Position numbers and translations under genes: made by a program. Positions 3,257 to 54,186 of a stretch of DNA of 64,000 nucleotides are shown here, in pieces. Source of the DNA: Candidatus Multivoraceae bacterium (GTDB lineage: Bacteria > Acidobacteriota > Thermoanaerobaculia > Multivoradales > Multivoraceae); assembly GCA_965219625.1 (NCBI GenBank), contig OZ244782.1:182911-246910 (forward strand). Reading direction: 5' to 3'. Numbering within the stretch: the stretch's first letter is position 1; each line of letters begins with the position of its first letter. Under the pieces are notes generated by a model. It searched no databases. It had not been told where the DNA came from and saw nothing but the letters and a program-made list of their open reading frames with translations.

Positions 3257-3375
3257 CGAAGCTCGGCTGTCGGCGCTTCTCTGGAAGCGGGACGAACTCC
3301 TCCCGGAGGCGGTCCGAGGCGAGACGGTCGCGGGTCTCCGGGGAGCGATCCGTCGATTACCGGCAGGCGATTGCT

Positions 3376-3410: not shown

Positions 3411-3442
3411 GGAGACCCTGAACCACCGACCCCGAACGCCGC

Positions 3443-3901
3443 GTGACACTCCCCGACCTGAAACGCCAACTCGAGCGTCTGGCCGCCAGCCAGTCCTGCG
3501 AGCTGCTCGAGACCTCCTTCCGCGGCGACCGGCTGCGGCTGGTCATCGATCATCCGGAAGGCGTGACCCACGATCACTGTGCCGAAGTGTCGCGCCAGGC
3601 ATCCGTGCTGCTCGACGCCGAGGACTTCGGGCCCGCGTCCGGTTACCTGCTCGAGGTGAGTTCACCCGGCCTCGACCGACAGCTCTACGGCCCCCGCGAC
3701 TGGGAGCGCTTCAGCGGTCGCCGCGCGAGGGTGACCTTCACCGATGCCGCAACCGGAAACCGGCGTACCGTTCGAGGCCTGCTGAAGGGCCTGAGCGACG
3801 AAGATCCCGCCTCTCTGCTCATGCTCGACGACGACAGCGGATGTACGCTTGCCATCGCGACGACCTCCGTCAACCAAGCCAGACTGCTGGTCGAACTCTG
3901 A
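3443..3901 (+). CDS. rimP: Ribosome maturation factor RimP
   Basis: 152 aa with a GTG start. The motif LEVSSPGLDRQL is typical of RimP, and the gene sits in the conserved position just upstream of nusA. Confidence 0.85.
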   Translation: MTLPDLKRQLERLAASQSCELLETSFRGDRLRLVIDHPEGVTHDHCAEVSRQASVLLDAEDFGPASGYLLEVSSPGLDRQLYGPRDWERFSGRRARVTFTDAATGNRRTVRGLLKGLSDEDPASLLMLDDDSGCTLAIATTSVNQARLLVEL

Positions 3902-3918
3902 CTCTGGAACCACACATC

Positions 3919-5376: not shown

Positions 5377-5404
5377 CCCGGGAAGAAAGAGAACCGAGGA
5401 TTTC

Positions 5405-12944: not shown

Positions 12945-12981
12945 GGTCGTTGCCGACAGTTCGGGCCGCCAGCTCGCCAAT

Positions 12982-14193: not shown

Positions 14194-14236
14194 CGGGTGA
14201 AGCTAGCAGGAGGACAACGTCTCCTCTGGCGGGAAG

Positions 14237-14959
14237 TCAGAATTCGCCCCGTTGCCGCAGCGAACACCAGCGTCCTCCGGGCGCCACGATGACATGGTCG
14301 ATCAACTCGACTCCGACCTCGGCCCCGGCACGCGCCAGACGACGCGTAAAGGTGCAGTCCGACTCGCTCGGCTCGGGATCGCCGCTCGGATGGTTGTGGA
14401 AGACGACGATTCCTGACGCGCCCAGCCGAAGGGCATCCCTGAGCACCGGCCGCGGCTCGACCGCCGCGCGGTCGATGCCGCCGACGAAGTGTTCCCGCTC
14501 CGCGATGACGCGGCACCGAATGTCGATGTAGATCGCCCCCATCACCTCCTGATCGCGTCGCACGTAACGTAGAGCCAGATAACGAGCGACGACGGCCAGG
14601 TCGCCAAGCGGCCTGCGTTCCGGCACCTCAGCCCGGGCCAACCGCCGCGCCAGCTCGACCGCCGCCAGAATCGCCGCCGCCTTCGCCTCGCCCAGGCCCT
14701 TGCGGCGAAGCGACGGCAGATCGTGCTCGACGAGGACCGCAAGCGACGATAGACCTCCCACGCCGCTGTGTTCGTCGTACAGGAGCTCGTACGCCAGGTC
14801 GAGTACCGAGCGTCCCCGGTGGCCGGTCCGAAGCAGGATGGCGACGAGTTCGCGATCGCTCAGCACGGCTGCCCCGTGCGCCAGGAGTCGCTCCCGGGGC
14901 CGCTCGCCGGTATCCATGTCTCGCAGCATTCCCGAGGCGTTCTCCTCGATCTTCGTCAT
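14237..14959 (-). CDS. radC: RadC-family JAMM-motif protein
   Basis: ERPRERLLAHGAAVLSDRELVAILLRTG forms the HhH part. The C-terminal part carries the JAMM motif HNHPSGDPEPSESD. Confidence 0.85.
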   Translation of the reverse strand: MTKIEENASGMLRDMDTGERPRERLLAHGAAVLSDRELVAILLRTGHRGRSVLDLAYELLYDEHSGVGGLSSLAVLVEHDLPSLRRKGLGEAKAAAILAAVELARRLARAEVPERRPLGDLAVVARYLALRYVRRDQEVMGAIYIDIRCRVIAEREHFVGGIDRAAVEPRPVLRDALRLGASGIVVFHNHPSGDPEPSESDCTFTRRLARAGAEVGVELIDHVIVAPGGRWCSLRQRGEF

Positions 14960-39853: not shown

Positions 39854-41332
39854 CTACCAACTGGCCGACGAGGCGCCGCTTGAACCCGGGGCCGGCATCC
39901 GCTCGCTCGCACCAGCACCGGGAAGATCGACATCGGGGGCCATGCGGATGACCTGCTCGTACAACTCCGCGCGCCGGCGACGAAGCCGCGCGAGCGTTCG
40001 TCGTCGAAAGCCGCCAGCCCACAGAGCCCGCAGCCCGTGTCCGAGTTCGCCGACGAAGCGGTGGTAGCGCAGTCCGAGCAGGGCCGACGCGCAGCACAGG
40101 GCGAGCATGCCGGCGAAGCGGACGCCCAGAGACTCCGGATACCAGTCGAATCCGGGCAGCGGCCGCGTCCAGATCAGGCTGACGAGGAGACTCGACAGGA
40201 GCCATGCCGTCGGCAGGACGACGAAGCCGAGCACGATCTTCAGCCCGGCCTCTTCCTTGCGGGTCACCGAGAGACGGCGAGCAGCGTGACGAACCAGCAG
40301 CGCCGCCGGCAGGTTGATCAGGTTGCCGACGAGAACCACGGTGGGCAAGAGCGCGAGCATGAGGACGAGCTCGGTCAGGAGCAGAAGGAACCGCAGAACG
40401 GTCCGCCGAACCGGAACCCGGTCGAGGTCGCGATCATCCAAGCCCAGCAACCGGAGCGCCTCGCCGTAGCGAGTCACCCGGGTCAACAACCCCTTGAGCG
40501 CGGCCGGATCCGTTGCTCGCCAAGCGTGATAGCCGAGCCAAACCCGGGAAAACCCGAGATCCCGCTCGTGCATCGCCGCGCGTTCCAATCGGGTACCGGC
40601 ACGAGCCGCTCGCTCGGCGCGAACAAGCGACGTCACCCGTTGCATCGCCCGGTGAATCTCCCAACTCTCCGTCGGATGAGTCACCGCGACCAGACGTCGT
40701 TCGATCTCGGCGGTCAGGCGCGCGACGAAACTCGATTCTCCCGACCCGGAGAGACCGTCCGCTTCTCCGACCAGTTCGGCCGCCAGCTCGACGGGCGGAT
40801 GAAAGGTGACCAGCGCCCGCGATCGAAACGCGTGCTTTCTCTCGTAGTGGAGCCCCACCGGGAGGAGCGCGGGCGCCGCACCGTTCTCCCTGGCCCGCGC
40901 GAACAGCCGCGCCGCGCCCGTCCGCAGTTCGAGCAGTCCGGGCTCGTCGTGGGTCGCACCCTCCGGAAAGACGGCCACGAAGGAACGTCGCGCTGCCGCC
41001 GCCAACGCCCCAAGGCTCTCCTGGTTTGCCGCCCGGCGCTCGCCGTCGCTCGTCGGCGCTCCGGGTTGCCCGCGGTCCTGCGGACGATAAAGGGGCACTG
41101 CACCGACGCCCCGGAGCACCCAGCCCACAAGCGGAAGGCGGAACAGGCCGTGCCTGGCCCCGAAGACGACCGGCCGCGGACAGAAACCGAGGATCAGAAT
41201 GCCGTCGGCGAGCCCGTTCGGATGCCACGCGACGAGCAACCCGCCGCCGGCCTCGGGAACATGTTCTTGGCCCACGACCTCGACTCGGCGAAAGAACAGC
41301 CTCGCCAGCAAGCGGAGCAATCCGGCGAGCAT
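39854..41332 (-). CDS. PlsC-type (lysophospholipid) acyltransferase fused to a multi-TM C-terminal domain
   Basis: The ATG is at 41332 (MLAGLLRLLARLFFRR). The HxxxxD acyltransferase motif reads VAWHPNGLADG, and VFPEGATHD is also present. The C-terminal part of about 200 aa has several hydrophobic helices. The upstream part of the track ORF is Arg-rich junk. Confidence 0.75.
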   Translation of the reverse strand: MLAGLLRLLARLFFRRVEVVGQEHVPEAGGGLLVAWHPNGLADGILILGFCPRPVVFGARHGLFRLPLVGWVLRGVGAVPLYRPQDRGQPGAPTSDGERRAANQESLGALAAAARRSFVAVFPEGATHDEPGLLELRTGAARLFARARENGAAPALLPVGLHYERKHAFRSRALVTFHPPVELAAELVGEADGLSGSGESSFVARLTAEIERRLVAVTHPTESWEIHRAMQRVTSLVRAERAARAGTRLERAAMHERDLGFSRVWLGYHAWRATDPAALKGLLTRVTRYGEALRLLGLDDRDLDRVPVRRTVLRFLLLLTELVLMLALLPTVVLVGNLINLPAALLVRHAARRLSVTRKEEAGLKIVLGFVVLPTAWLLSSLLVSLIWTRPLPGFDWYPESLGVRFAGMLALCCASALLGLRYHRFVGELGHGLRALWAGGFRRRTLARLRRRRAELYEQVIRMAPDVDLPGAGASERMPAPGSSGASSASW

Positions 41333-41438
41333 ACGCGCCCTGAACCCGCTCTCACGCGTCGCCGCTCCCGCCACTGGAATCTCCTCGGAGAGCGGCGAGT
41401 CTACGCGAACGCAGGGGCTGCGTGCACGCAGATGCAAG

Positions 41439-41467
41439 AAGAGCGCAGGCACTCGACCTGCGCTCTT
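41439..41467. other. Perfect 11-bp inverted repeat (AAGAGCGCAGG-N7-CCTGCGCTCTT) in the 0.5-kb spacer between the paralog array and the acyltransferase gene
   Basis: The arms are at 41439-41449 and 41457-41467. A 14-nt palindrome, CTGCGTGCACGCAG, lies next to it at 41418-41431. It could be a U-tract-less terminator for the array or an operator for the acyltransferase gene. Its function is unknown. Confidence 0.5.
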
Positions 41468-41835
41468 CGCGGTCCGCAGACCGAACGGCTGCAGTTTCGC
41501 GGTGGGCTTATCGCCCGGTGGGCTCCGACCGCATCTGTCGACATCTCGGGTCCGACCGCTGCGGATGCGTCGCATCCGTCGAGCGGTCCCGGTCGTTCAG
41601 ATCACGGCCGCACAGCCGGATATCGATCGTCCGTTCGGGCAGCGGGACCTGGAGCCCCCGGCGACGCGCTCCTGGCGGTCAGCCAGTGCCGCACCGGGGG
41701 CTGAAGATGGCCCGGCGGTGTCATGACGCCTCCTTCCGTTCGAACATGAGAACACCGTACGCACGGTGCGGAAGGCTGTCAAGCGACCGACCGGTCGGCA
41801 ACTCCCTCGAACGCGACCGAGCGTGCCCGTTCAGG

Positions 41836-43683
41836 TCACCCTTCCGGTGGAGAAACTCCCTGCTCGGGATACACCCCGCTGCCGCCAGCCTCGATGTACT
41901 TCGTCCAGAAGTTCGGAGGCCACGGCAGAACCAGCCAGTCCGCGAAGCCTTCGACGAAGGTCGGCAACGGCCCCCTGCAGTCCCGCTCCACGTTCGCCGC
42001 CCACTCGGGCTTGCACTCAAGCGTCGGACCGCCGCCAAGGGAACGCGTCACGGCGTCCGGGTCGTCGCGAACGCCCGGCGCAGCCTCTCGCGCCGCTCGG
42101 ACCGCCTCGACCTGCACGTCGTATCGATCCGCCGGCACGATCCTCCCGCCGTCCGTGGACCGGCCGACGCAGACCCTCTGCTCGCCCGCCGGAAGGTCCC
42201 GTTCCCACGAGTACGTCTCCGGCACGCCGGTCACCGAGAGCCCCGTCCGCTCGGTCACCGAGAACCTGACCCGCTGCGCGGTCGCCAACGTGAAGTCGTG
42301 ACAGGGCTCGGCGGGCGCGTCGTCCACCTTGAGCTCCACCAGGGCGCCCGCATTCTGCGGCAGTCGGGCGGCGGCGGAAACCGTCGCCGCGTCGGACGCG
42401 GTCGCGGACGGCCTCGAGCCAGCGTCCACGCCAGGCGCGTTGTGGACCGTCAGCAGGCTCGGCATCGGCGTCATGTCGAGGATCCGAGCGCAGCGGTCGA
42501 GCGTGCCGTCGACCATGCAGCGCTCGAGGACGAGCGCCTTCGTGCCGTTCGGGCTGACGTGGAAGAGGCCGGGAGACGCAGACTGGTAGAGGGCGAACAA
42601 CGTGCCTTCATGCCAGCCCGTAGAGCGCTCGATCAAGCCAGCTGGCGCAAGGGGATCGCGCCAGATGTAGTCGATTCGGTACTGCCCGTCCCGCGTCGCC
42701 AAACCGACGAGGCCACGCGTGCGCGGCCGGAGTCCACCGTCGTAGACCTCCCACCCCTCCACCTGCCAATACGGTTCCGTCGGCGGACCGGAGAGGCCGA
42801 GATCCGGAAGGTGGTAGGCACGGAGCTCGCCGCTCTTCGTCTCGCTGCTCTTCGTCGCCGACCAGAGGACGTGAGCCGCCCCTTGCCAGCCGAACTCCCA
42901 CTCGTCGTCTCCCGGAAAGAGCTCGAAGGGATGGCTCGCCTCGTCGTCCTCATCAATGTGGACCGTGTAGACGTGGAAGTCTCCGTCATCACTTTCGGCC
43001 CATGGAAGTTGAAGGACGGGACCCTCGGAATCCAACAAGCTGAACCAATAGGCCGGCTCCGGCTCATCCCAGGGACCGTAGGTCCCGGGTTCGTCAAAAT
43101 GAACGGCGACCCGCCGTTTGACGACCGCTTTCCTGGACGTGAAGTCGCCGAGCCTGATCTCCACGCGGTCGAAGAGCGGATGATCCACGTCGCCGGACTC
43201 CCGTTCGGCCACCGCCCAGACCTCGCCGTCTGGAGACACCTCGAAGGCTGCCTCTGCCAAGTTGGGCCATTCCCTGTTGTCCCAACTCCACACCTGCTTC
43301 ACGTCGCCGCCGGGAAGGATCTCGATGACCTCCTCCGTCCAGGCGCCGTAGCCTCCGTTATCCAAGGGCCCCTTGACGCTCGTCAGCCAAATGCGCCCGT
43401 TCCTCAGCTTCCGCATCCGTCGCACACGGGTCTCCGGCAATTCGACCGCGTCGAGGAGCGAGCCGTCCGCCCCAAGCCGCAGGAAGAACGAACCCTCCGC
43501 GATCACATCATCGAAGATCTGCCCCGCTCCAAAGACAGGTCGAAACAGCAGGACAGCCCGCCCGTCGTCCTCGATGTAACCCGACACGTACTCAGCCTCG
43601 GGCAGTACGAGTCCCTCGTCAGCGAGCAACGGAGCCGCCGCAAGGCAGCAACACAAGTACATCCAGCACGTCCGCTTCGTCAT
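41836..43683 (-). CDS. Array paralog 1: signal-peptide protein of the unnamed ~420-aa family, fused at its C-terminus to a ~200-aa copy of the peptidase middle module
   Basis: The ATG is at 43683 (MTKRTCWMYLCCCLAAAPLLADEG). Residues up to ...ARILDMTPMPSLLT align with paralogs 2-4. The part encoded by 41836..~42448 (EPCHDFTLATAQRVRFSVTERTGLSVTG...PADRYDVQVEA...PWPPNFW) aligns with the region around aa 495-640 of the 848-aa peptidase ORF. Confidence 0.8.
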   Translation of the reverse strand: MTKRTCWMYLCCCLAAAPLLADEGLVLPEAEYVSGYIEDDGRAVLLFRPVFGAGQIFDDVIAEGSFFLRLGADGSLLDAVELPETRVRRMRKLRNGRIWLTSVKGPLDNGGYGAWTEEVIEILPGGDVKQVWSWDNREWPNLAEAAFEVSPDGEVWAVAERESGDVDHPLFDRVEIRLGDFTSRKAVVKRRVAVHFDEPGTYGPWDEPEPAYWFSLLDSEGPVLQLPWAESDDGDFHVYTVHIDEDDEASHPFELFPGDDEWEFGWQGAAHVLWSATKSSETKSGELRAYHLPDLGLSGPPTEPYWQVEGWEVYDGGLRPRTRGLVGLATRDGQYRIDYIWRDPLAPAGLIERSTGWHEGTLFALYQSASPGLFHVSPNGTKALVLERCMVDGTLDRCARILDMTPMPSLLTVHNAPGVDAGSRPSATASDAATVSAAARLPQNAGALVELKVDDAPAEPCHDFTLATAQRVRFSVTERTGLSVTGVPETYSWERDLPAGEQRVCVGRSTDGGRIVPADRYDVQVEAVRAAREAAPGVRDDPDAVTRSLGGGPTLECKPEWAANVERDCRGPLPTFVEGFADWLVLPWPPNFWTKYIEAGGSGVYPEQGVSPPEG

Positions 43684-43910
43684 CTCGTCACCCCCCACTC
43701 CTCGCAACTGTCCGGTTCCGGCCCGAACGTCCAGCGTGCCCCCTCCGCTGCCCCCTCGCGGCCCGAGCAGAAGAGCGAGGTCAACCGCTTCCTGCCCTCG
43801 TCAGTGGTAGAGCCAAGCTCGTTGCTGCCCAAGCGAAGAGGATCTCGACGCACGTTGCAGGCTGCACCGTACCAGCCGTTGAACGGCCGAGGAGTGAACG
43901 CGGCGCCCAA
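43680..43910 (-). pseudogene. Relic 1 of an M23-peptidase gene 3' end
   Basis: The 76-aa ORF ends ...EGARWTFGPEPDSCEE. The usual stop has mutated to Trp, so it runs into the paralog 1 start. FNGWYG...WTFGPEP-SCEE aligns with FIGFYG...WTFGPEPNSCEE at the end of the intact peptidase, but the HxH catalytic motif is missing. Confidence 0.55.
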
Positions 43911-43950
43911 GGCCTGGGACGCCTCGAGCCTCTTCGATCTCCAGGGACGC

Positions 43951-45185
43951 CTATTCTCCGTCGCCGGACTCGCTTGAACTCGTCAGCAGGCTCGGCATCG
44001 GCGTCATGTCGAGGATCCGAGCGCAGCGGTCGACCATGCAGCGCTCAAGGACGAGCGCCTTCGTGCCGTTCGGCTGACGTGGAAGAGACCGGGAGACGCA
44101 GACTGGTAGAGGCCGAACAACGTGCCTTCATGCCAGCCCGTAGAGCGCTCGATCAAGCCAGCTGGCGCAAGGGGATCGCGGACAATGTGATCGATCCGAT
44201 ACTGACCGCCTCGTAACGCGACTCCCTTGAGTCCGCGGTCAGAGCTCGGCCACAACCAGTCGTATTCGTTGTCTTTCTCGACGGCCCAGAACGGCGTCGT
44301 GGGATCGCCCGAAAGACCCAGGTCGGGAAGATGATACGCCCTCAGCTGACTGTTCGTTTCCGACCACAGAACCCGCTCCGCCACCTGCCAACTTCTAACC
44401 CCTTCACCCCTTCCCGGAAACACCTCGAACCGGTAACTCACCTCGTCTTCCTCGCCAATGTGGACGGTGTAGAGACGACCGTCGCCGCTAGCACTATCGA
44501 CCCACGGAAGTTGCACGACGGGACCGTCGGAATCCAACAAGCGAAACCAATAGGCTGGATCCGGCTCATCCCAAGGCCCATAGGTCCCCGGCTCGTCGAA
44601 GTGAACGGTGATCCTCCGCCTGACGTCCGCCTTGCTGGACGCGAAGTCTCCAAGCTCGATCTCCACCCGGTCGAAGAGTGGATTCTCGAGTTCGCCGGAT
44701 TCCCGTTCGGCTACCGCCCAGGCCTCGCCGTCTGGAGACACTTCGAAAGCCGCATCTATCAAGGCGGGCCATTCCCTGGTGTCCCAGCTCCAGATCTGCT
44801 TCACGTCGCCGCCGGGGAGGATCTCGATGACCTCCTCCGTCCAGGCGCCGTAGCCTCCGTTATCCAAGGGCCCCTTGACGCTCGTCAGCCAGATGCGCCC
44901 GTTCTCGAGCTTCCTCATCCGTCGCACACGGGTCTCCGGCAATTCGACCGCGTCGAGGAACGAGCCGTCCGCCCCAAGCCGCAGGAAGAACGAACCCTCC
45001 GCGATCACATCATCGAAGATCTGCCCCGCTCCAAAGACAGGTCGAAACAGCAGGACAGCCCGCCCGTCGTCCTCGATGTAACCCGACACGTACTCAGCCT
45101 CGGGCAGTACGAGTCCCTCGTCAGCGAGCAACGGAGCCGCCGCAAGGCAGCAACACAAGTACATCCAGCACGTCCGCTTCGTCAT
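43951..45185 (-). pseudogene. Array paralog 2: frameshifted C-terminus (open frame only 44004..45185)
   Basis: The N-terminal ~130 aa are nearly identical to paralog 1. Relative to the other copies, one G is missing from a GGG run (about 44072) and a 12-bp in-frame segment is missing (about 44031). The last 26 codons are therefore out of frame. The ancestral stop (cta) is still visible at 43951-43953. Confidence 0.6.
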
Positions 45186-45200
45186 TGTCTCAGGTCCTCC

Positions 45201-45416
45201 TCACTCCTCGCAGCTGTTCGGTTCCGGCCCGAACGTCCAGCGTGCCCCCTCCGCTGCCCCCTCGCGGCCCGAGCAGAAGAGCGAGGTCAACCGCTTCCTG
45301 CCCTCGTCAGTGGCAAGGCCAAGCTCGTTGCTGCCCAAGCGAAGAGGATCTCGACGCACGTTGCAGGCTGCACCGTACCAGCCGTTGAACGGCCGAGGGA
45401 TGAACGCGGCGCCCAA
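45201..45416 (-). pseudogene. Relic 2 of an M23-peptidase gene 3' end
   Basis: The 71-aa ORF reads MGAAFIPRPFNGWYGAACNVRRDPLRLGSNELGLATDEGRKRLTSLFCSGREGAAEGARWTFGPEPNSCEE. The alignment argument is the same as for relic 1. Confidence 0.55.
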
Positions 45417-45456
45417 GGCCTGGGACGCCTCGAGCCTCTTCGATCTCCAGGGACGT

Positions 45457-46719
45457 CTATTCTCCGTCGCCGGACTCGCTTGAACTCGTCAGCAGGCTCG
45501 GCATCGGCGTCATGTCGAGGATCCGAGCGCAGCGGTCGAGCGTGCCGTCGACCATGCAGCGCTCGAGGACGAGCGCCTTCGTGCCGTTCGGGCTGACGTG
45601 GAAGAGGCCGTTCTCCGCCCGATAGATCGTGAACAGGACCCCATCCTGCCATCCGGTCGAACGCTCGACGAGGGCCGATGGCGCCAACGGATCCCGCCAG
45701 ATGTAGTCGATTCGGTACTGCCCGTCCCGCGTCGCCAAACCGACGAGGCCACGCACCCGCGGCCAGAGGCGGCCGTCGTAGGCCTCCCTCCCCTCCACCT
45801 GCCAATACGATTCCGTCGGTAGGCCGGAAAGGCCGAGATCCGGAAGGTGGTAGGCACGGAGCTCGCCGCTCTTCGTCTCGCCGCTCTTCGCCGCCGACCA
45901 GACGACACGATCGGCACCCTGCCAGCTGAACTGCCCCTCGTCGTCTCCCGGGAACAGCTCGAAGAAGTGGCTCGCTTCACCGTCTTCATTGATGTGGACC
46001 GTGTAGACGTGGATTTCGCCGTCATCGCCGTCGACCCAGGGAAGTTGCAGGACGGGACCTTCGGAAGCCAACCAGACAAACCAATAGAGCGGATTCCCCT
46101 CATCCCAAGGTCCATAGGTCCCCGGCTCGTCGAAGTGAACGGTGATCCTCCGTTTGACGTCCGCCTTGCTGGACGCGAAGTCGCCGAGCTTGATCTCCAC
46201 CCGGTCGAAGAGCGGAATCTCGACCTTGGCAGACCCCCGTTCGGCTACCGCCCAGGCCTCGCCGTCCGGCGACACGTTGAAGGCTGCGTCTATCAAGGCG
46301 GGCCATTCCCTGGTGTCCCAGCTCCAGATCTGCTTCACTTCGCCGCCGGGAAGGACCTCGATGACCTCCTCCGTCCAGGCGCCGTAGCCGGCGTCATCCA
46401 AGGGCCCTTTGACGCTCGTCAGCCAGATGCGCCCGTTCCTCAGCTTCCACATCCGTCGCGCTTCCGTATCCGGCAACTCGACCGTGTCGAGGAGCGAACC
46501 GTCCGCCCCAAGCCGCAGGAAGAACGAACCCTCCGCAAGGAAATCATCGAAGACCTGCCCCGGCCGGAGGACCGGTCGAAACAGCAGAACAGCCCGCCCG
46601 TCGTCCTCGATATAACCGTCGACGTACTCGCTACGCGGAAGGGTGACCCCGCCGGCGCCGAACAGGACGCCGACCGACGCAAGGCAGAAGAGGTACGTCC
46701 AACACGTCCGCTTGGTCAT
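45457..46719 (-). CDS. Array paralog 3: secreted protein of the unnamed ~420-aa family
   Basis: 420 aa with the signal peptide MTKRTCWTYLFCLASVGVLFGAGG. SPDGE and SPNGTK motifs hint at a PD40/TolB-like beta-propeller. It is about 90% identical to paralog 4. Confidence 0.8.
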   Translation of the reverse strand: MTKRTCWTYLFCLASVGVLFGAGGVTLPRSEYVDGYIEDDGRAVLLFRPVLRPGQVFDDFLAEGSFFLRLGADGSLLDTVELPDTEARRMWKLRNGRIWLTSVKGPLDDAGYGAWTEEVIEVLPGGEVKQIWSWDTREWPALIDAAFNVSPDGEAWAVAERGSAKVEIPLFDRVEIKLGDFASSKADVKRRITVHFDEPGTYGPWDEGNPLYWFVWLASEGPVLQLPWVDGDDGEIHVYTVHINEDGEASHFFELFPGDDEGQFSWQGADRVVWSAAKSGETKSGELRAYHLPDLGLSGLPTESYWQVEGREAYDGRLWPRVRGLVGLATRDGQYRIDYIWRDPLAPSALVERSTGWQDGVLFTIYRAENGLFHVSPNGTKALVLERCMVDGTLDRCARILDMTPMPSLLTSSSESGDGE

Positions 46720-46723
46720 CTCG

Positions 46724-46945
46724 TCACCCCCTCACTCTTCGCAACTGTCCGGCTCCGGCCCGAACGTCCAGCGTGCCCCTCCGCTGCCACGTCGCGGCCG
46801 AGCAGAAGAGCGAGGTCAACCGCTTCCTGCCCTCGTCAGCGGTCAAGCCAAGCTCGTTGCTGCCCAAGCGAAGAGGACCTCGACGCACGTTGCAGGCTGC
46901 ACCGTACCAGCCGTTGAACGGCCGAGGGATGAACGCCGCGCCCAA
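46724..46945 (-). pseudogene. Relic 3 of an M23-peptidase gene 3' end (internally frameshifted)
   Basis: The start matches relics 1 and 2 (MGAAFIPRPFNGWYGAACNVRRGPLRLGSNELG). After SLFCS the frame changes and the WTFGPEPNSCEE tail is lost from this frame. Confidence 0.55.
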
Positions 46946-46985
46946 GGCCTGGGACGCCTCGAGCCTCTTCGATCTCCAGGGACGC

Positions 46986-48248
46986 CTATTCTCCGTCGCC
47001 GGACTCGCTTGAACTCGTCAGCAGGCTCGGCATCGGCGTCATGTCGAGGATCCGGGCGCAGCGGTCGAGCGTGCCGTCGACGATGCAGCGCTCGAGGACG
47101 AGCGCCTTCGTGCCGTTCGGGCTGACGTGGAAGAGCCCGTTCTCCGCCCGATAGATCGTGAACAGGACCCCATCCTGCCAACCGGTCGAACGCTCGACGA
47201 GGGCCGATGGCGCCAACGGATCCCGCCAGATGTAGTCGATTCGGTACTGCCCGTCCCGCGTCGCCAAACCGACGAGGCCACGCACCCGCGGCCAGAGGCG
47301 GCCGTCGTAGGCCTCCCTCCCCTCCACCTGCCAATACGATTCCGTCGGTAGGCCGGAGACGCCGAGATCCGGAAGGTGGTAGGCACGGAGCTCGCCGCTC
47401 TTCGTCTCGCTGCTCTTCTTCGCCGACCAGACGACACGATCCTCACCCTGCCAGCGAAGCTGCCCCTCGTCGTCTTCCGGGAACAGCTCGAAGAGGTGGC
47501 TCGCTTCGCCGTCTTCATTGATGTGGACCGTGTAGACGTGAATTTCGCCGTCATCGCTGTCGACCCAGGGAAGCTGCAGGACGGGACCTTCGGAATCCAA
47601 CAAGCGAAACCAATAGAGCGGATTCCCCTCATCCCAAGGCCCATAGGTACCCGGTTCGTCGAAGTGAACGGTGATCAGCCGTTTCACGTCCGCCTTGCTG
47701 GACGCGAAGTCGCCGAGCCTGATCTCCACCCGGTCGAAGAGCGGAATTTCGACCTCGCCGGACTCCCGTTCAGCTACCGCCCAGGCCTCGCCGTCTGGAG
47801 ACACTTCGAAGACTACCTCTGTCAAGTTGGGCCATTCCCTGTTGTCCCAGCTCCAGATCTGCTTCACGTCGCCGCCGGGAAGGATCTCGATGACCTCCTC
47901 CGTCCAGGCGCCGTAGCCGGCGTCATCCAAGGGCCCCTTGACGCTCGTCAGCCAGATGCGACCGTTCTCGAGCTTCCGCATCCGTCGCGCTTCCGTATCC
48001 GGCAACTCGACCGTGTCGAGGAGCGAACCGTCCGTCGCGAACCGCAGGAAGAACGAACCCTCCGCAAGGAAATCATCGAAGATCTGCCCCGGCCGGAGGA
48101 CCGGTCGAAACAGCAGAACAGCCCGCCCGTCGTCCTCGATGTAACCGTCGACGTACTCGCTACGAGGAAGGGTGACCCCGCCGGCGCCGAACAGGACGCC
48201 AACCGACGCAAGGCAGAACAGGTACGTCCAACACGTCCGCTTCGTCAT
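46986..48248 (-). CDS. Array paralog 4: secreted protein of the unnamed ~420-aa family, translationally coupled to the peptidase gene
   Basis: 420 aa. The ATG at 48248 lies 12 nt after the peptidase stop. The spacer reads GGGGGTGACGAG on the coding strand and is Shine-Dalgarno-like. Confidence 0.82.
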   Translation of the reverse strand: MTKRTCWTYLFCLASVGVLFGAGGVTLPRSEYVDGYIEDDGRAVLLFRPVLRPGQIFDDFLAEGSFFLRFATDGSLLDTVELPDTEARRMRKLENGRIWLTSVKGPLDDAGYGAWTEEVIEILPGGDVKQIWSWDNREWPNLTEVVFEVSPDGEAWAVAERESGEVEIPLFDRVEIRLGDFASSKADVKRLITVHFDEPGTYGPWDEGNPLYWFRLLDSEGPVLQLPWVDSDDGEIHVYTVHINEDGEASHLFELFPEDDEGQLRWQGEDRVVWSAKKSSETKSGELRAYHLPDLGVSGLPTESYWQVEGREAYDGRLWPRVRGLVGLATRDGQYRIDYIWRDPLAPSALVERSTGWQDGVLFTIYRAENGLFHVSPNGTKALVLERCIVDGTLDRCARILDMTPMPSLLTSSSESGDGE

Positions 48249-48260
48249 CTCGTCACCCCC

Positions 48261-50807
48261 TCACTCCTCGCAGCTGTTCGGTTCCGGCCCGAACGTCCAG
48301 TCGCCCGTTCCTTCCATCTCGTCCTTCCCGCCCCAGCGGGAGAGCGGGTTCAGCGGAGTCCCGTCAGCGTTCCTGAATGCCAAGTGCAGATGGGCACCGA
48401 ACACGGTCCCTGTCTTTCCGTAGAAGCCGATGAACGAACCCGCATACACCGGCCCCTCCGGGAAATCGGTCCTGACGTCGAGATGGCAGATCTGCCAGTA
48501 CTTGCCGTCCTCCACCGTGATCTTCGCCCAGTGTCCGCAACCGTAGTGGTTTCCCACATCCAGGACCTCCTCTCCAGTCTCCGGGTCTACAGTCCGAGCC
48601 CACTGATCGTGATACGTCAGCATTCCCGTCTCGGGTGAGCGGAACCAGACCGGCGTCCGCTTCGTGTTCATGTCGATACCCGAGTGGTTCCTCTTCGTGT
48701 TCTCTCCGCCCCACGCGGCGCCGAAGAGCTCGTTCTCCTTGAAGTTCCGGCTCCGGCAGTCCGTGAAGTCGGCGACATCCGCCAGATCGTCAATCAGACC
48801 GTCCTCATCCGCGTCGACGTAGTACTCGCGCTTGAAGTTCTCTGCCAGATACTCGTAGATCGGCTCCCAGTCCCACGGATAATCGTCCCAGAAATCCCTT
48901 GGCCACGGCATGTTCACGTCGTACGTGAACTCGTAGTGGTCCTCGATCACCGTGATCACCTCGTCGATGATCGGCGGCGGCGTGTCGCAGTCCGGCTGCT
49001 CGCCTCCGTCGATCGCGCACAACTCCGGACCCTCAACCTCCGCCGTCACGGAATCCGGATCCGCATCGTCCGCGGACGAAGCCTCTTGCTCGGTAGCTCC
49101 AATCGCTTCCACCTTCACGTCGTAACGGTCAGCCGGAACACGGAGCGAACTTCCGGCGTTGCGCCTCACGCACACCTTGTGCTCGCCCGCCTCGAGGTCC
49201 CGCTTCCAGGAGTACGTCCGCGGACCGCCGGTCAGCGGTAGCCCGGTCCGCTCCGTCACCGAGAACTTGACCCGCTGCGCGGACGCCAGAGTGAACCGGT
49301 GGCAAGGGTCGAGCGGCGCAGCGTCGACCACCCGGTCGACCAGAACGCCCTCGGGAAGTGCAACCTCCACTCCATGCGTCGAGCGGGCGCCGAACCAGCC
49401 GTTCGACCCCTTCCTCATCCGCAACTCGAGCTCATACGGCCCTGGGGACTCCGGCGCCGTCATGTCGACCTGGAAGGTATGCACGGCATTCGGCGCGACG
49501 GTGACCCCGGCGGGCAGCTCGACCGCCGCGATCCCCCAATCGCCCGAAACCTCGTTCAGAGCGTAGCCCCCGGAACGCGACCACGTTGTGTTCCCCATGT
49601 TCCGCACGGTCACGCTGACCTGCTCCACGCCGCCGGCGGTCATCGTGCCCGGAACCCCGCTAACCGAATCGAACGACGCGTCGTCCCGCGGCGGCAAGGT
49701 CACCGTGATCGTCTCGCTCGGACTCGCCCAGCCGAACCACTTCGTGCCCCGGAGCATCCGCCAACCGAAACCGTAGCTCCCCGCCGTCGACGGCGCCGTC
49801 ATCGTGAAGGTGAACGCATGGCTCTCGTTCGGCGCGACGCTGCCGGACAAGGCGACTTGGCGGAGCCCCCAAGGCGGCGTCGCCGCGGAGGTATGGGACC
49901 CCAGCTTGTATCCCGCGCCCGCCGTCCACGTCGTTGTGCCCGTGTTCTTCATCGTCACCGTCACCGTCTTCGTCGAACCCGCCGTCATCGACGACGGCAG
50001 GCCGGAGTACGACACGAATCTCGCCTTGTCCGCGGGCGGCGAGGTCACCGTGATCGCGCGGCTCGTACTCGCGTCGCCGAACCACGTCCCGTTTCGCCGC
50101 ATCCGCCAGCTGAAGCTGTAGCTCCCCGCCGTCGACGGCGCCTTGATCGTCAAGGTGAACACGTGGCTCCGGTTCGGCGCCACGCTCCCCGCCACCGTCT
50201 TCTCCTTCAACCCCCAGGTCGTGTTGTTCGGAGCACCCTGAGAACCCAGCTTGTAGCCCCCGCCGGCCGTCCACGTCGTCCCGCCCGTGTTCTTCATCGT
50301 CACCGTCACCGTCTTCGTCGAACCTGCCGTCATCGACGACGGCAGGCCGGCGTACGACACGAAGGACGCGCCGTCCGTCGGCGCGGACGTCACGGTGATC
50401 GTGCGGCTCGGCGTCTGCGCGCCGAACCACGGACTGCCACTGCTCGTGATCGCCGGCGGCGGATTCGGGTTCGTCGGGTCGCCGCCCGACTCGCGGAGCA
50501 TCCGCCAGCGGAAGCTGTAGTTCCCCGGTTTGCTCGGCGCCTTGATCGTCAGCTTGAACGAGTGAACGCCGTTCGGCGCGACGCTGCCCGATACCGCCTT
50601 CCGATTCAAGCCCCACGTCGTGTTGTTCACCGGAGATTGGGAACCCAGCTGGTAGCCCTTGCTCCCCGTCCATGTCGTCCCGCCCGTGTTCCGCATCCTC
50701 ACCGTGACGACCCGCGTCTCCCCCGTCCGGAGCGACGACGGCAGGCCCGTGGTCGACACGAACGCAGCGTTGTCCGAAGCCGGCGGGCGAGCCGGCGGCC
50801 GCGTCAC
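48261..50807 (-). CDS. Major (C-terminal) part of a split gene: four NBR1-type Ig-like repeats, a beta-sandwich-like module, an acidic linker and an M23 (LytM-type) metallopeptidase domain
   Basis: The repeats fit the NBR1 FW/Ig pattern (FVSYAGLPSSM..G.TKTVTVTMKNTGGTTW...AP..AGSYSFSWRM...WFG...ITVT). The M23 motifs are HSGID (HxxxD) and GAHLHLAF (HxH), encoded at about 48342-48695. This frame stays open upstream to the poly-G tract (50849), where it reads DRWFGGRSPNRTIKVT, the end of another repeat. The GTG at 50807 is therefore probably not the native start, and this part has no signal peptide. Confidence 0.85.
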   Translation of the reverse strand: MTRPPARPPASDNAAFVSTTGLPSSLRTGETRVVTVRMRNTGGTTWTGSKGYQLGSQSPVNNTTWGLNRKAVSGSVAPNGVHSFKLTIKAPSKPGNYSFRWRMLRESGGDPTNPNPPPAITSSGSPWFGAQTPSRTITVTSAPTDGASFVSYAGLPSSMTAGSTKTVTVTMKNTGGTTWTAGGGYKLGSQGAPNNTTWGLKEKTVAGSVAPNRSHVFTLTIKAPSTAGSYSFSWRMRRNGTWFGDASTSRAITVTSPPADKARFVSYSGLPSSMTAGSTKTVTVTMKNTGTTTWTAGAGYKLGSHTSAATPPWGLRQVALSGSVAPNESHAFTFTMTAPSTAGSYGFGWRMLRGTKWFGWASPSETITVTLPPRDDASFDSVSGVPGTMTAGGVEQVSVTVRNMGNTTWSRSGGYALNEVSGDWGIAAVELPAGVTVAPNAVHTFQVDMTAPESPGPYELELRMRKGSNGWFGARSTHGVEVALPEGVLVDRVVDAAPLDPCHRFTLASAQRVKFSVTERTGLPLTGGPRTYSWKRDLEAGEHKVCVRRNAGSSLRVPADRYDVKVEAIGATEQEASSADDADPDSVTAEVEGPELCAIDGGEQPDCDTPPPIIDEVITVIEDHYEFTYDVNMPWPRDFWDDYPWDWEPIYEYLAENFKREYYVDADEDGLIDDLADVADFTDCRSRNFKENELFGAAWGGENTKRNHSGIDMNTKRTPVWFRSPETGMLTYHDQWARTVDPETGEEVLDVGNHYGCGHWAKITVEDGKYWQICHLDVRTDFPEGPVYAGSFIGFYGKTGTVFGAHLHLAFRNADGTPLNPLSRWGGKDEMEGTGDWTFGPEPNSCEE

Positions 50808-51195
50808 CTTGATCGTGCGGTTCGGCGACCGACCGCCGAACCAGCGGTCACCCCCCCCCCCCGAGGATCGCGACCGGCGGATTCGGGTCGAGCGGGTCCG
50901 GCTTGAGTTCGCGGAGCATCCGCCAGCGGAAAGCGTAGGTCCCCGGCTTCTTCGGTGCGGTAATCGCCAGCTTGAACGAATGAACGCCGTTCGGCGCGAC
51001 GCTCCCCGACACCGCCTTCCGCTTCAACCCCCACGTCGTGTTGTTCGCCGGAGATTGGGAACCCAGCTGGTAGCCCTTGCTCCCCGTCCATCTCGTCGTC
51101 CCGGTGTTCCGCATCCTCACCGTGACGACCCGCGTCTCCCCCGTCTTCATCGACGACGGCAGGCCCGTGGTCGACACGAACGCAGCGTTGTCCGC
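49356..51195 (-). repeat. Five tandem intragenic domain repeats (~115-139 codons each) encoding NBR1-type Ig-like domains
   Basis: Repeats 1 and 2 recur with a 418-bp period (tcgcggagcatccgccagcgga at 50491 and 50909), which is 139 codons plus 1 nt. Repeats 3 to 5 are progressively more diverged. Confidence 0.85.
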
Positions 51196-51300
51196 CGCGC
51201 TCGCCATGCCGGCAGCAAGCGCCAAGCACGCGATGCAGAAAGTCAGACGGCAGAACGCGAGACGCCGGCACACAACACGCCCGACGGTCGAGTCGGTCAT
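50848..51300 (-). CDS. N-terminal part of the same split gene: signal peptide plus the first NBR1-type Ig-like repeat, ending in the poly-G tract
   Basis: The ATG at 51300 gives MTDSTVGRVVCRRLAFCRLTFCIACLALAAGMASA/ADNAAF. The first repeat is about 90% identical at DNA level to the second. The frame ends ...PPVAILGGGG-TGA, with the stop immediately after the G12 run. Confidence 0.8.
   Translation of the reverse strand: MTDSTVGRVVCRRLAFCRLTFCIACLALAAGMASAADNAAFVSTTGLPSSMKTGETRVVTVRMRNTGTTRWTGSKGYQLGSQSPANNTTWGLKRKAVSGSVAPNGVHSFKLAITAPKKPGTYAFRWRMLRELKPDPLDPNPPVAILGGGG
50851..50862 (-). repeat. Homopolymeric tract: 12 C on the plus strand, which is 12 G on the coding strand
   Basis: I counted this directly: a(50850), c x12 (50851-50862), g(50863). 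No other homopolymer of comparable length was noticed in the window. Confidence 0.95.
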
Positions 51301-51546
51301 CGAAGTCACGTGAAACACCGGCAACGGCATGACTGCTTGCGCCCGCCTGTTCAAGATATTGAAGGGTGATGACAATCTACAGCACATTCGCGCCGCCTTG
51401 TCAAGGTCGACCTCTGTCCGTACGGCCGATCAGGTGGCCTCCTGGGGCCGGAACCTCGCCTCGACTCCGGGCGAGGCCAGCAACCGGCCGGCTGCCAGCC
51501 GCAGGCCCGGATCCGGCTTTTCGGGGCGTTTTGCGTCTTAGTCCGT

Positions 51547-53064
51547 GTGATCGCATTCATGAGCTCCGCCACCCCCTGGGGAATCGAAGCGCGGGAGGTC
51601 CAGGTCGAAGTCGGGGTCTACTTCGGGCTGCCGGCGATGCAGCTCATCGGCTTGCCGGACACGGCAGTCCGAGAGAGCCGCGATCGGGTGCGCTCGGCGA
51701 TTCGCAGCAGCGGCTACACCTTGCAGAACCGGAACGTGGTGATCAACTTGGCTCCGGCGGACCTGCGCAAGGAGGGCAATCAGCTCGACCTGCCGATCGC
51801 CCTGGGCCTCTTGACGGCTCACGGCGAATTGCTGCCGGAAGCCCTCGAAGGTCGCCTGGCTTGCGGCGAACTCGGCCTGGACGGGGAGGTGCGGCCGATC
51901 CGTGGCGCTCTCTCCATCGCCGAGCTCGCCGGGCGCCTCGGCATTCGCGAACTCCTGCTTCCGGCGAGGAACAGCGGCCAGGCGGCGGCGCTGGCGAAGA
52001 CGGCGGTGATTCCGGTAACGACGCTGCGCGAGGCGATCGAGCACCTGGTCGGCGACGACACGATCGACCCCGCAACGCCCATCCCCCGGAACGACCGCGA
52101 CGCCTCGGGTCCGGACTTCGCCGACGTGCGGGGCCAGCAGACGGCGAAGCGCGCCCTCGAGATCGCGGCCGCTGGCGGCCACAACGTTCTGTTCATCGGC
52201 CCGCCGGGCAGCGGCAAGACGATGCTCGCCCGACGACTGCCCGGGATTCTGCCTCCGCTGACGCAGACCGAGGCGATCACGGTGACGAAGATCCACTCCC
52301 TCGCCGGCACCGCGCGGGGCGACAGCCTGATGTGGACGCGGCCCTTCCGTTGCCCCCACGCCGGCGTATCCTCGTCCGGCCTGATCGGCGGAGGTTCGAT
52401 TCCCCGCCCGGGTGAGATCAGCCTCGCGCATGCCGGCGTCCTCTTCCTCGACGAATTCCCGGAGTTTCGCCGCGACGCGCTGGAAGCGCTCCGCCAGCCG
52501 CTCGAGGACGGTCTGGTCACCGTGGTCCGCGCACAGGCCCGGCTCACCTTTCCCGCCCGCTTCACCCTGGTTGCCGCGTCGAACCCCTGCCCTTGCGGTC
52601 ACCTGGGCGATCCGCGATCGGACTGCACCTGCAGCGCGCGGGATGTCGACCGCTACCAGCGCCAACTGTCCGGGCCGCTTCTCGACCGGATCGATCTCCA
52701 CATCGAAATGCCCGTACCCAGCCTGGAGGATCTCAAGGGGCCCCAGGGGGAGCGGTCCGAGGCGATCGCCGAGCGCGTCGCGCAGGCGCGAGAATCCCAG
52801 GCGGCGCGGTTCGCTCCAGGGCACCCGATGCCCGTAAACAACGCGCTCGAACGTTCGCAACTCGACCGGGACTGTCAGCCAACGGACGCGGCTCGGAGTC
52901 TGATCGACGCCGCATTCAAGCGCTTGGCGATGTCCGCCCGAGCACTCACCCGGTCGCTCAAGGTCGCCCGCACGATCGCTGATCTCGACGAGTCCCCGAC
53001 AATCGACGTCACCCATGTCGCCGAAGCCATCCAGTACCGGCCACTGGATCGGAGCGCGACCTGA
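51547..53064 (+). CDS. comM: YifB/ComM-family Mg-chelatase-like AAA+ ATPase
   Basis: The Lon-like N-terminal domain includes GLPDTAVRESRDRV. The AAA+ core has Walker A GPPGSGKTMLA, and LFLDEFPEF is present. The start is the GTG at 51547 or the ATG at 51559. Confidence 0.9.
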   Translation: MIAFMSSATPWGIEAREVQVEVGVYFGLPAMQLIGLPDTAVRESRDRVRSAIRSSGYTLQNRNVVINLAPADLRKEGNQLDLPIALGLLTAHGELLPEALEGRLACGELGLDGEVRPIRGALSIAELAGRLGIRELLLPARNSGQAAALAKTAVIPVTTLREAIEHLVGDDTIDPATPIPRNDRDASGPDFADVRGQQTAKRALEIAAAGGHNVLFIGPPGSGKTMLARRLPGILPPLTQTEAITVTKIHSLAGTARGDSLMWTRPFRCPHAGVSSSGLIGGGSIPRPGEISLAHAGVLFLDEFPEFRRDALEALRQPLEDGLVTVVRAQARLTFPARFTLVAASNPCPCGHLGDPRSDCTCSARDVDRYQRQLSGPLLDRIDLHIEMPVPSLEDLKGPQGERSEAIAERVAQARESQAARFAPGHPMPVNNALERSQLDRDCQPTDAARSLIDAAFKRLAMSARALTRSLKVARTIADLDESPTIDVTHVAEAIQYRPLDRSAT

Positions 53065-53118: not shown

Positions 53119-53313
53119 GACCTCCAGGAGGAACGTCGAGCGCCGTTCCGGCGCTGCTAGAATCCTGCGCGCACGGACGCGACGCCAGCGCTCGGCGACG
53201 CTCGGGTGCTTGACATCACGACTCTCTCGGCGGATAATATTCGGATTCCTCGATACGCAGTCCGTAGGCGGACGCCCTCTGCGACTCCGCCCCCGGATAA
53301 GGCGCCAATCGGC

Positions 53314-54186
53314 ATGCGGCCCAGGCTTCACACCATCGTATTCATCCCGCGCTCGCGGGGACGCACGCGGCAGTTTCACGTCCGCACCCGCTGGCTCTGG
53401 GCCGGAGCGCTGGGCGGCGCTCTCCTGCTCGGCGCCTCCGGCTGGATCCTCGTCTCCGAGAGCGCTGCCGTTCTCAAGGCCCGCGATCTCGCCCGGATGG
53501 AGCGCGAGAATGAAGACCTGCGCCACATGAACGAGTCCCTCGAAACCTCGGTCTCCCGACTCCAGACGGCGCTGAACGATGCCGAGGACCGCACGCGAGA
53601 CCTGGCGATCGTCGCCGGGCTCGATCAGGCGATCGGCGGCGAGCCGGAGAACCGTCTCTCCGAGAGCGGCGCCGGCGGCGGCTACTCGAGGCCGGGCGGT
53701 CACGATCTGCCCTTGCTCCAGGCGCGCGCCGGCCTGCTCGACCGCCAGCTCCAGGCGGTCGACGACGCGCTCCAGGAGCGTCGGTTGGCGCTGCGCTCCA
53801 CGCCGATGGTCTGGCCTGTTCGCGGCGTGATCAACAGCGGCTTCGGCTTCCGCCAGGATCCGATCACCGGCCAGCGATCCCGCCACCTCGGCATCGACAT
53901 TTCGGCCGAACGCGGTCAACCCGTGACGGCTACCGCCGACGGGCTCGTCGTCCGAGCGGAACGGATCGGCAACCTCGGCCGCGCCGTCTACGTCTCCCAC
54001 CGATTCGGCTACCAGACCCGCTACGGCCACATGTCGAAGATCCTCGTCGAAGAGGGCAGCGAGGTGCGTCGCGGAGACCTTCTGGGGTACGTCGGCAACT
54101 CGGGGCGGGCGACCGGCTACCACCTGCACTATGAAGTGCGGCGAAGCGGCGCCGCGCACGATCCAGTCGACTACTTGCGGGACTGA
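53314..54186 (+). CDS. M23-family murein endopeptidase (MepM/EnvC-like) with N-terminal TM anchor and coiled coil
   Basis: The ATG is at 53314 (MRPRLHTIVF). A TM segment (WLWAGALGGALLLGASGWILV) is followed by HLGIDISA (HxxxD) and TGYHLHYEV (HxH). Confidence 0.88.
   Translation: MRPRLHTIVFIPRSRGRTRQFHVRTRWLWAGALGGALLLGASGWILVSESAAVLKARDLARMERENEDLRHMNESLETSVSRLQTALNDAEDRTRDLAIVAGLDQAIGGEPENRLSESGAGGGYSRPGGHDLPLLQARAGLLDRQLQAVDDALQERRLALRSTPMVWPVRGVINSGFGFRQDPITGQRSRHLGIDISAERGQPVTATADGLVVRAERIGNLGRAVYVSHRFGYQTRYGHMSKILVEEGSEVRRGDLLGYVGNSGRATGYHLHYEVRRSGAAHDPVDYLRD

Follow-up and report, generated by a model that had tools for sequence, protein, structure and literature searches.

An exported M23 peptidase coupled to an array of predicted beta-propeller proteins in Acidobacteriota: a candidate lytic enzyme and immunity module

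Introduction

Why would a bacterium keep four copies of a gene whose upstream partner is present at most once? The question is raised by a stretch of 64,000 nucleotides (nt) on contig OZ244782.1 of a marine Candidatus (Ca.) Multivoraceae bacterium (Acidobacteriota), called the window here, in which the gene for an exported peptidase of the M23 family is followed by four tandem paralogs of one further gene. The products of these paralogs, P1 to P4, are the window copies of a family here termed P, the 420-amino-acid (aa) signal-peptide proteins encoded 3′ of the peptidase. The original prediction, made from the nucleotide sequence and its open reading frames (ORFs), saw in the locus a candidate lytic effector with cognate, immunity-like partners. 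The 10-kb stretch concerned is an acquired accessory island, and it carries a two-gene module that is specific to Acidobacteriota and probably mobile. The explanation favored below, whose chances of being right and wrong we judge to be equal, is that of a Sec-exported bacteriolytic enzyme with P as its cognate periplasmic inhibitor and the additional P copies as orphan immunity genes.

Linkage of P to the Peptidase

Loci were fetched via P from metagenomes (L001–L008) and from species-representative genomes (14 loci, L009–L022), and were scanned with hidden Markov models (HMMs) made for the M23 subfamily and for P. All 14 genome-collection loci come from Acidobacteriota, i.e., Thermoanaerobaculia including Ca. 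Multivorans, Vicinamibacteraceae, and two bins labelled only Acidobacteria. Nearly every P gene in the 22 fetched loci is preceded on the same strand by an M23 domain of the subfamily that ends 0–45 nt upstream. The search from the peptidase side gave the same picture, with P directly downstream of all subfamily matches (L011, L023, L024, L108/109, L110 and L111) and no P downstream of the generic M23 genes L025–L027; the single metagenome scan made from this side returned only generic M23 genes. The identities of paired M23 domains and P proteins co-vary (r = 0.69), with P diverging faster. The “cognate partner” part of the original prediction is strongly supported by this linkage in both search directions, and the survey of synteny and copy number in related genomes that it had proposed brought out both the linkage and a variation in copy number.

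As expected of effector and immunity genes, the partner gene lies directly downstream on the same strand and is tightly coupled, with a gap of 12 nt in the window, gaps of up to 45 nt in relatives, and overlapping stop and start codons in L001, L006, L110 and L111. Both proteins have Sec-type signal peptides, which would place the partner in the compartment of the enzyme, again as in effector–immunity pairs, the compartment being read from sequence only.

The association is asymmetric, with at least as many P copies as peptidase copies. The M23 domain of L009 is reduced to profile positions 85–163, which are fused to a fragment of a membrane-protein gene and followed by one frameshifted and one intact P; in L010, positions 75–163 precede an intact P; one of the three units of L018 has only positions 113–162; and in the window P stands behind truncated M23 fragments three times. 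One peptidase is accompanied by two P genes in L017, an extra partial P is found in both L015 and L007, and L019 and L003 have P without any M23 domain. In L019, a spurious ORF upstream simulated a 1250-aa fusion protein; the true gene encodes a solo P of 431 aa. An intact subfamily peptidase without P was seen in none of the roughly 25 loci, most of which were found via P. Within that sample, the toxin-like gene never occurs without the immunity-like gene and the latter occurs also on its own, as in effector–immunity systems.

These observations bear directly on the alternative that survives best, namely that P is a positive accessory subunit, acting as a chaperone, as a factor for export or activation, or as a co-secreted partner that targets the substrate or cell as half of a heterodimer. 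Tight translational coupling and co-divergence would suit any obligate complex, propellers (the predicted fold of P, see below) are typically ligand-binding or scaffold proteins, the structural matches of P to TolB and to phage receptor-binding propellers fit such a role, and P is larger than most immunity proteins. Against this, P is intact where the peptidase is truncated or absent (the window, L009, L010, L018, L019 and L003) and evolves under purifying selection, four P copies in the window face at most one peptidase, and no subfamily peptidase was found without P, a case that a dispensable helper would permit. The original prediction had held that such partner roles fit equally well; the asymmetry of lost peptidases and kept P genes weakens them, and we regard an accessory subunit as unlikely.

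Anatomy of the Array

The peptidase stop codon is followed by 12 nt (GGGGGTGACGAG) and the ATG of P1. The start codons of the four P genes lie at 48248, 46719, 45185 and 43683, at start-to-start spacings of 1529, 1534 and 1502 nt, so that both the position of the 420-aa signal-peptide protein and the 1.50–1.53 kb period of the three further units came out as predicted (Table 1). Windowed identity between the units is a mosaic in which blocks of 100% stand beside blocks of 40–60%, which points to gene conversion.

Three of the four paralogs had been taken to be intact. This holds for P1 and P2 but not for P3, which is truncated, nor for P4, to which a peptidase relic is fused. P3 has lost 1 nt from a CCC run and, in a further deletion, 12 nt; its last two strands are removed by these deletions, and it is a probable pseudogene. 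P4 continues for 204 codons past the repeat boundary with a sequence that is 49% identical (BLASTP E 2e-39; 73% identity by blastn within the window) to peptidase residues 484–643 and also matches the peptidase of L001 (E 5e-21); this extension spans the beta-sandwich, the Cys linker and the PWPxxFW motif and has no M23 domain. At its two ends the array thus has a full peptidase gene and the middle of a second copy, decapitated and M23-less.

The spacers between the P genes share with the peptidase its last 40 nt (~13 codons, ~95% identical) and the ribosome-binding spacer, and the subfamily HMM extends the recognisable peptidase tail to ~36 codons (E 3e-5). In the remainder of each ~215-nt spacer, the similarity to the peptidase equals that of shuffled sequence (z 1.1–1.5). 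Peptidase relics of about 70 codons, as originally proposed, were rejected beyond ~36 codons by the HMM and shuffle tests, and only ~13 codons are clear. Every orphan P copy nonetheless retains its own Shine-Dalgarno-like sequence and ATG. Among P1–P4, dS is 0.1–0.7 and dN/dS is 0.29–0.46, indicating purifying selection, and at these dS values such ratios mean that the P copies have long been kept as coding genes. The P frames have the codon-position GC expected of real genes.

A scan of the array for promoters and terminators gave matches not above those in shuffled sequence. An integron cassette array was considered and rejected, as neither an integron integrase nor attC-like inverted repeats in the spacers were found; the window has no recombinase, and the recombinases of the related loci are only weakly Xer-like, far below the cut-offs.

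Table 1. Position of the island, the peptidase gene and the P array in the window, with the basis of each assignment.
Feature	Position	Strand	Basis and remarks
Accessory island	41576..51546	-	between PlsC-like gene and comM; composition profile and nearest-genome comparison
Tandem DNA array, ~3.8 units of ~1.53 kb	42448..48300	-	self-blastn; units 82–86% identical
P1, 420 aa, signal peptide, predicted seven-bladed beta-propeller	46986..48248	-	ORF call, AlphaFold2, Foldseek
Spacer 1, peptidase-tail vestige and Shine-Dalgarno-like sequence before P2	46720..46985	-	alignment, HMM, shuffle test
P2, intact 420-aa paralog	45457..46719	-	92% identical to P1; dN/dS vs P1 0.46
Spacer 2 with peptidase-tail vestige	45186..45456	-	alignment, HMM
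P3, 393-aa paralog	44004..45185	-	68% identical to P1
Spacer 3 with peptidase-tail vestige; stop codon mutated to TGG	43684..44003	-	alignment, HMM
P4, propeller part	42448..43683	-	78% identical to P1
P4, C-terminal extension (relic of a second peptidase fused in frame)	41836..42447	-	BLASTP
Exported multidomain M23 peptidase gene	48261..51300	-	ORFs; Pfam N_BRCA1_IG and Peptidase_M23
Peptidase signal peptide	51196..51300	-	MTDSTVGRVVCRRLAFCRLTFCIACLALAAGMASA then ADNAAF; cleavage site judged by eye
Five NBR1-type Ig-like repeats	49359..51195	-	Pfam PF16158
Beta-sandwich module, Cys-containing linker, PWPxxFW and acidic DxDxDG-like stretch	48768..49358	-	alignment with relatives
M23 catalytic domain, distinct subfamily	48264..48767	-	motifs DCRSRN, HSGID, CGHWA, CHLD, HLH; tail WTFGPEPNSCEE; four Cys
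G12 homopolymer at frameshift	50851..50862	-	linker between NBR1 repeats 1 and 2; C12 on plus strand

The Exported M23 Peptidase

As sequenced, the peptidase is split into two ORFs of 179 aa (50848–51387) and 848 aa (48261–50807). The break falls at a run of twelve G residues (G12), the only homopolymer of at least 8 nt in the 64-kb window, and with G11 in its place a single 1012-aa ORF is obtained from the ATG at 51300; the single gene of ~1010 codons that had been predicted is thus recovered with G11 and interrupted in the sequence as it stands. The presence of a unique run exactly at the frame break points either to a homopolymer sequencing error or to a slippage-prone switch. A long in-frame homopolymer that sets the reading frame is the hallmark looked for in phase-variable genes, and the G12 run could be a phase-variation tract as well as an error.

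The signal peptide and all five NBR1-type repeats of the original prediction were found again, with the signal peptide and one repeat residing in the 179-aa ORF. Four N_BRCA1_IG (PF16158) repeats were detected in the 848-aa ORF (E 6e-28), and the first repeat of the protein, the fifth to be counted and near-identical to the others, in the 179-aa upstream ORF (E 7e-7); a tandem periodicity of 345 nt is seen. Full-length relatives likewise begin with hydrophobic signal sequences. Their N-terminal repeats vary, being of the NBR1 type in the window, He_PIG and PPC in L001, PPC in L007 and L015, and PPC-like, as judged by eye, in L005. The region between the repeats and the M23 domain, with its beta-sandwich, Cys linker and acidic stretch, is conserved in the closest relatives L001 and L005. 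We read this as an exported enzyme with putatively exchangeable binding modules. The NBR1 repeats of the 848-aa ORF are basic (pI 10.3, +20), and the mid-module and the M23 domain carry charges of −29 and −9.

In the C-terminal 168 residues, the zinc ligands and catalytic histidines known from solved M23 structures find their counterparts in the motifs HSGID, CHLD and HLH. The HxxxD motif is HSGID in the window, with H, G and D unchanged throughout the subfamily alignments, and the Pfam alignments of relatives span the motif from profile position 2–3; the HxH motif and the upstream catalytic histidine are found in GAHLHL and ICHLD, which match the equivalent residues of the solved enzymes. All three elements (HxxxD, catalytic His, HxH) are invariant in the aligned intact domains and present in the other intact copies too, so that the M23 domain with HxxxD and HxH and the metal ligands of the original prediction hold on alignment with solved structures. 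The window protein scores 24–26 bits and does not reach the Pfam PF01551 cut-off (28.7 bits), which is passed by its subfamily relatives in L006 (45 bits), L008 (49 bits) and L007 (39 bits), and the subfamily profile matches M23 chains of the PDB at E 5e-10, with zoocin A among the solved-structure matches. The protein is therefore a divergent member of M23 and not a non-member.

The alignments set the subfamily apart by its CGH(Y/W)A motif, by four cysteines conserved among relatives, and by a likewise conserved C-terminal tail that reads G-(W/F)-T-F...DP..C.E. To judge from the conserved cysteines only, the domain is probably disulfide-stabilised, and the enzyme would be expected to cleave peptidoglycan cross-links.

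The P Family and Its Predicted Fold

That no family would be recognised for the ~420-aa proteins had been anticipated, and profile searches in Pfam, NCBIfam, PADLOC, PHROGs and PDB sequences indeed gave no match to P; the curated propeller repeats PD40 and WD40 of Pfam were likewise without a match. An exhaustive profile search of 1.84 billion representatives found a small family of 46 clusters at 50% identity, 41 of them with E < 1e-10, where a word-indexed protein search had yielded only 4 and 8 relatives. Full-length members have ~400 aa, and all 35 aligned members have N-terminal signal peptides. By these searches, P is a new family. The mature proteins are very acidic (pI ~4.5, net charge ~−30).

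AlphaFold2 with a 35-sequence alignment modelled P1 at a pLDDT of 84.2 and a pTM of 0.85, with 27–28 strands, and in this confident model P is a predicted seven-bladed beta-propeller. It replaced a first model from a 5-sequence alignment, which was unusable (pLDDT 49). Foldseek against the PDB and viral models returned propellers only, at TM scores of 0.3–0.5, among them prolyl oligopeptidase, TolB, eIF3i, DDB1 and phage receptor-binding propellers. The guess of a PD40-like beta-propeller in the original prediction was thus borne out at the level of the fold. A specific structural relative was sought, and only generic propellers at these TM scores were matched, so that the fold is clear and comes without a functional label.

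The Accessory Island and Its Mobility

Six ORFs, all on the minus strand as originally described, lie between the PlsC-like acyltransferase gene (39854–41575) and comM (51547–53064), and the GC content of the island is 62–65% against 69–70% in the flanks. The nearest genome found in the collection, Ca. Multivorans sp. OZ242222.1, encodes a ComM that is 81% identical and has the same gene order as the window (folA-thyA-GT4-GT4-plsC-comM-M23(EnvC-like)-secA); its plsC-comM site measures only ~690 bp and holds no match to the peptidase subfamily or to P. No paper naming Ca. Multivorans was found in the literature search. The remainder of the window consists of housekeeping genes (rpsA, thyA, folA, glycosyltransferases, secA, pnp and others), and no secretion-system or mobile-element genes were found among the genes called and scanned across it, in line with the earlier statement that secretion systems are absent nearby.

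In related loci, a tyrosine recombinase adjoins the module in L001, L011 and L014 by Pfam and in L012, L015, L018 and L021 by BLAST clustering, and L012 has an adjoining transposase as well. Clustering of neighbours across loci was mostly confounded by spurious ORFs in GC-rich DNA, and apart from the recombinase and carB clusters it yielded nothing usable. Four loci have the module directly 3′ of carB, and this position may be a preferred integration site.

Several further observations concern these surroundings. The order carB, divergent tyrosine recombinase, module recurs in L014 (2188–9272), L015 (1709–9176) and L021 (1385–8930), and in L005 (2–6742) carB is present and the recombinase absent. 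The pair in L005 is flanked by a 429-bp direct repeat (3033–3460 and 6834–7262; 90% identity) that is the 5′ end of a membrane-protein host gene, and the truncated peptidase of L009 (6775–7020) starts with the same AWFLCDD fragment of a membrane protein, which together suggest a shared insertion site and a subsequent deletion. Further unannotated genes for proteins of 458–508 aa follow P in L006 (9611–12609) and L003 (1776–3152), the L003 protein with an apparent signal peptide and the 508-aa L006 protein with a weak PPC match. A ParE-toxin gene is located ~2 kb upstream of the module in L109 (1348–1608) and is absent there in the near-identical contig L108.

Within the window, an intergenic segment of ~310 nt beside the island (41487–41798) is 71% identical to a segment of the nearest genome (L028 9533–9842) that has the opposite orientation, has neither an Rfam match nor a clear ORF, and may be the footprint of an insertion event or an unrecognised element; the Rfam scan of the whole window gave zero matches. 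The first ~80 codons of the PlsC-like ORF (39854–41575, minus strand) are not conserved in the relative and resemble a translation of non-coding DNA; its true start is probably near 41332 (MLAGLLRLL...), which would put ~500 nt of intergenic DNA next to the island. Adjoining comM is another M23 gene, of the ordinary kind (53206–54186, plus strand; EnvC/MepM/ShyA-like, Pfam 106 bits); it is conserved at the corresponding position of the nearest genome, which makes it a housekeeping gene unrelated to the island. Two long ORFs elsewhere, 3685–6327 (minus strand, 880 aa) and 12844–14292 (plus strand, 482 aa), have gene-like codon-position GC and no Pfam match at E 1e-5.

The setting of the module is also where a second alternative has to be weighed, by which the peptidase would be an endogenous autolysin and P its periplasmic regulator in wall remodelling, with no antagonism involved and the array a simple amplification. 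Sec-only export with no delivery system nearby would agree with this, as would the position of some loci among envelope genes (YceG and LptD in L006; the EnvC/MepM-like M23 gene and secA in the window). A housekeeping function of this kind is, however, at odds with an island of lower GC that is missing from the same site in the nearest genome, with genomes that hold several diverged modules, often beside tyrosine recombinases or a transposase or within direct repeats, with the frequent truncation of peptidase copies, and with the swapping of N-terminal binding domains (NBR1, He_PIG, PPC) among relatives. Endogenous remodelling is therefore considered improbable.

The weakest alternative, that the array is functionless, as decaying duplicated mobile DNA or as an assembly artefact of strain variants whose frames stay open because GC-rich DNA has few stops, could appeal to the frameshifted peptidase, the truncated P3, the fused P4 and a source genome that is probably metagenome-derived, but it is very improbable given the constraint on P1, P2 and P4 (dN/dS 0.29–0.46 at dS 0.4–0.7), the gene-like codon-position GC of the P frames, the similar multi-copy arrays in independent assemblies (L017, L018 and L009) and the fact that each array junction in the window is distinct.

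A Candidate Bacteriolysin and Immunity System

The explanation favored here, a bacteriolytic enzyme with a cognate inhibitor and orphan immunity copies, could work as follows. The first gene would give a Sec-exported protein with variable Ig-like surface-binding repeats, a conserved beta-sandwich and linker, and an M23 zinc endopeptidase domain, and the second, translationally coupled to it, a very acidic propeller that is also Sec-exported. P would meet the peptidase in the periplasm of the producer, bind to the conserved C-terminal catalytic region and hold the enzyme inactive, thereby shielding the producer's wall both against the enzyme made by the cell itself and against that set free by kin; after leaving the cell, the enzyme would act on other bacteria. 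The three extra P copies presumably arose by unequal crossing-over and were then reshuffled by gene conversion, with the peptidase copies that once stood before or after them deleted to vestiges, and they might serve as orphan immunity genes that broaden protection against variant enzymes. Export beyond the periplasm, the binding and inhibition of the M23 domain by P, and the antagonistic role are steps that we infer.

The “immunity-like” part of the original prediction gains from the retention of P behind lost peptidases, from purifying selection on P, from the accessory status of the island and from the recombinases that adjoin related modules. With copy number added, these make an argument of evolutionary logic throughout, read from sequence, and suggest immunity at that strength.

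Several points weigh against the scheme. The peptidase is frameshifted in this genome, so that the “toxin” may be off. No delivery apparatus or domain (type VI, type VII, type IV or contact-dependent inhibition, CDI) was found among the scanned window genes or in the domains of the peptidase, which leaves Sec only. For an immunity protein, P is large (~400 aa). The propeller is a generic scaffold, and no functional relative of P came out of Foldseek. P and the M23 domain are both acidic, so that their charges do not obviously complement each other. Finally, the ~25 loci sampled were mostly found through P and are biased toward its presence, and many are from metagenome bins in which frameshifts may be assembly errors.

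A wider version, tentative and somewhat doubtful in our estimate, would have a secretion-system-independent, mobile bacteriolysin–immunity system of marine Acidobacteriota, in which the propeller is a dedicated trans-acting M23 inhibitor, the orphan arrays are gene-converted, and a poly-G tract switches the toxin on and off while immunity remains encoded.

Comparison with Known Systems

The closest likeness is to Tse1/Tsi1 of Pseudomonas aeruginosa, also a bicistronic pair, in which a peptidoglycan-cleaving enzyme is encoded beside a Sec-exported, all-beta, propeller-like protein that blocks it in the periplasm (PMC3391265), as P may do here. Tsi1 is a partial beta-propeller that inhibits the peptidoglycan hydrolase Tse1 (PMC3391265), and immunity proteins can serve mainly against self-intoxication (PMC10933484). 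The two systems differ in that Tse1, which a type VI system delivers, is an amidase of the NlpC/P60 type, whereas the enzyme here is an M23 metallopeptidase with its own signal peptide and no type VI genes nearby. Tsi1 is small, with three sheets, whereas P, unrelated to it in sequence, has ~400 aa and is predicted to form a complete propeller of seven blades.

With lysostaphin and zoocin A, the module shares a secreted M23 endopeptidase, a separate wall-targeting domain, accessory DNA and an adjacent gene for self-protection, the last of these putative here. Producers of these Gram-positive bacteriocins are protected by enzymes of the FemABX type, which alter the cross-bridge, and not by a binding protein, and the targeting domain of the bacteriocins is C-terminal. 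In the present case, the binding repeats stand at the N-terminus, the partner is a predicted propeller that does not look like an enzyme, and the host is a diderm.

The orphan immunity arrays of CDI and Rhs loci offer a third comparison, with several diverged copies of the downstream partner, each behind a vestige of the toxin 3′ end, and recombination between copies. CDI and Rhs toxins have a conserved N-terminus and a C-terminal toxin part that varies together with the immunity protein, whereas here the catalytic C-terminus is conserved and the N-terminal repeats vary, and the vestiges (~13–36 codons) are too short to be alternative toxin tips. P also resembles the TolB/PD40 propellers in being a predicted periplasmic propeller with SPDG/SPNG-like turns, TolB being among its structural matches; it lacks the N-terminal domain of TolB, its gene context is unrelated to tol-pal, and the similarity, at TM scores of 0.33–0.5, is generic.

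As a kind, such a system is already known, namely a secreted hydrolase of peptidoglycan whose protector is encoded alongside and exists in orphan copies. New are the partner family, the complete propeller fold, Sec-only export, the inverted polarity of a conserved catalytic C-terminus and variable N-terminal repeats, and the host phylum; a limited literature search found no description of an M23/propeller immunity pair.

Significance

M23 endopeptidases shape bacterial cell walls, and some, such as lysostaphin, are leading enzyme antibacterials. Their activity is controlled by autoinhibitory domains, by proteolysis or by modification of the cross-bridge, and to our knowledge no dedicated protein inhibitor of M23 peptidoglycan endopeptidases has been described. 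If P inhibits the peptidase, it would be a new structural solution for the control of these enzymes and a new immunity family, matchless in all profile libraries and PDB sequences searched, and it would offer a first insight into antagonism between bacteria in Thermoanaerobaculia and Vicinamibacteria, abundant and uncultured Acidobacteriota of marine and host-associated habitats. The pair is small and modular, with a catalytic domain of 168 aa and a partner of 400 aa, and is thus directly testable. Even if the immunity reading is wrong, the coupling of propeller and peptidase provides a functional lead for 46 orphan protein clusters.

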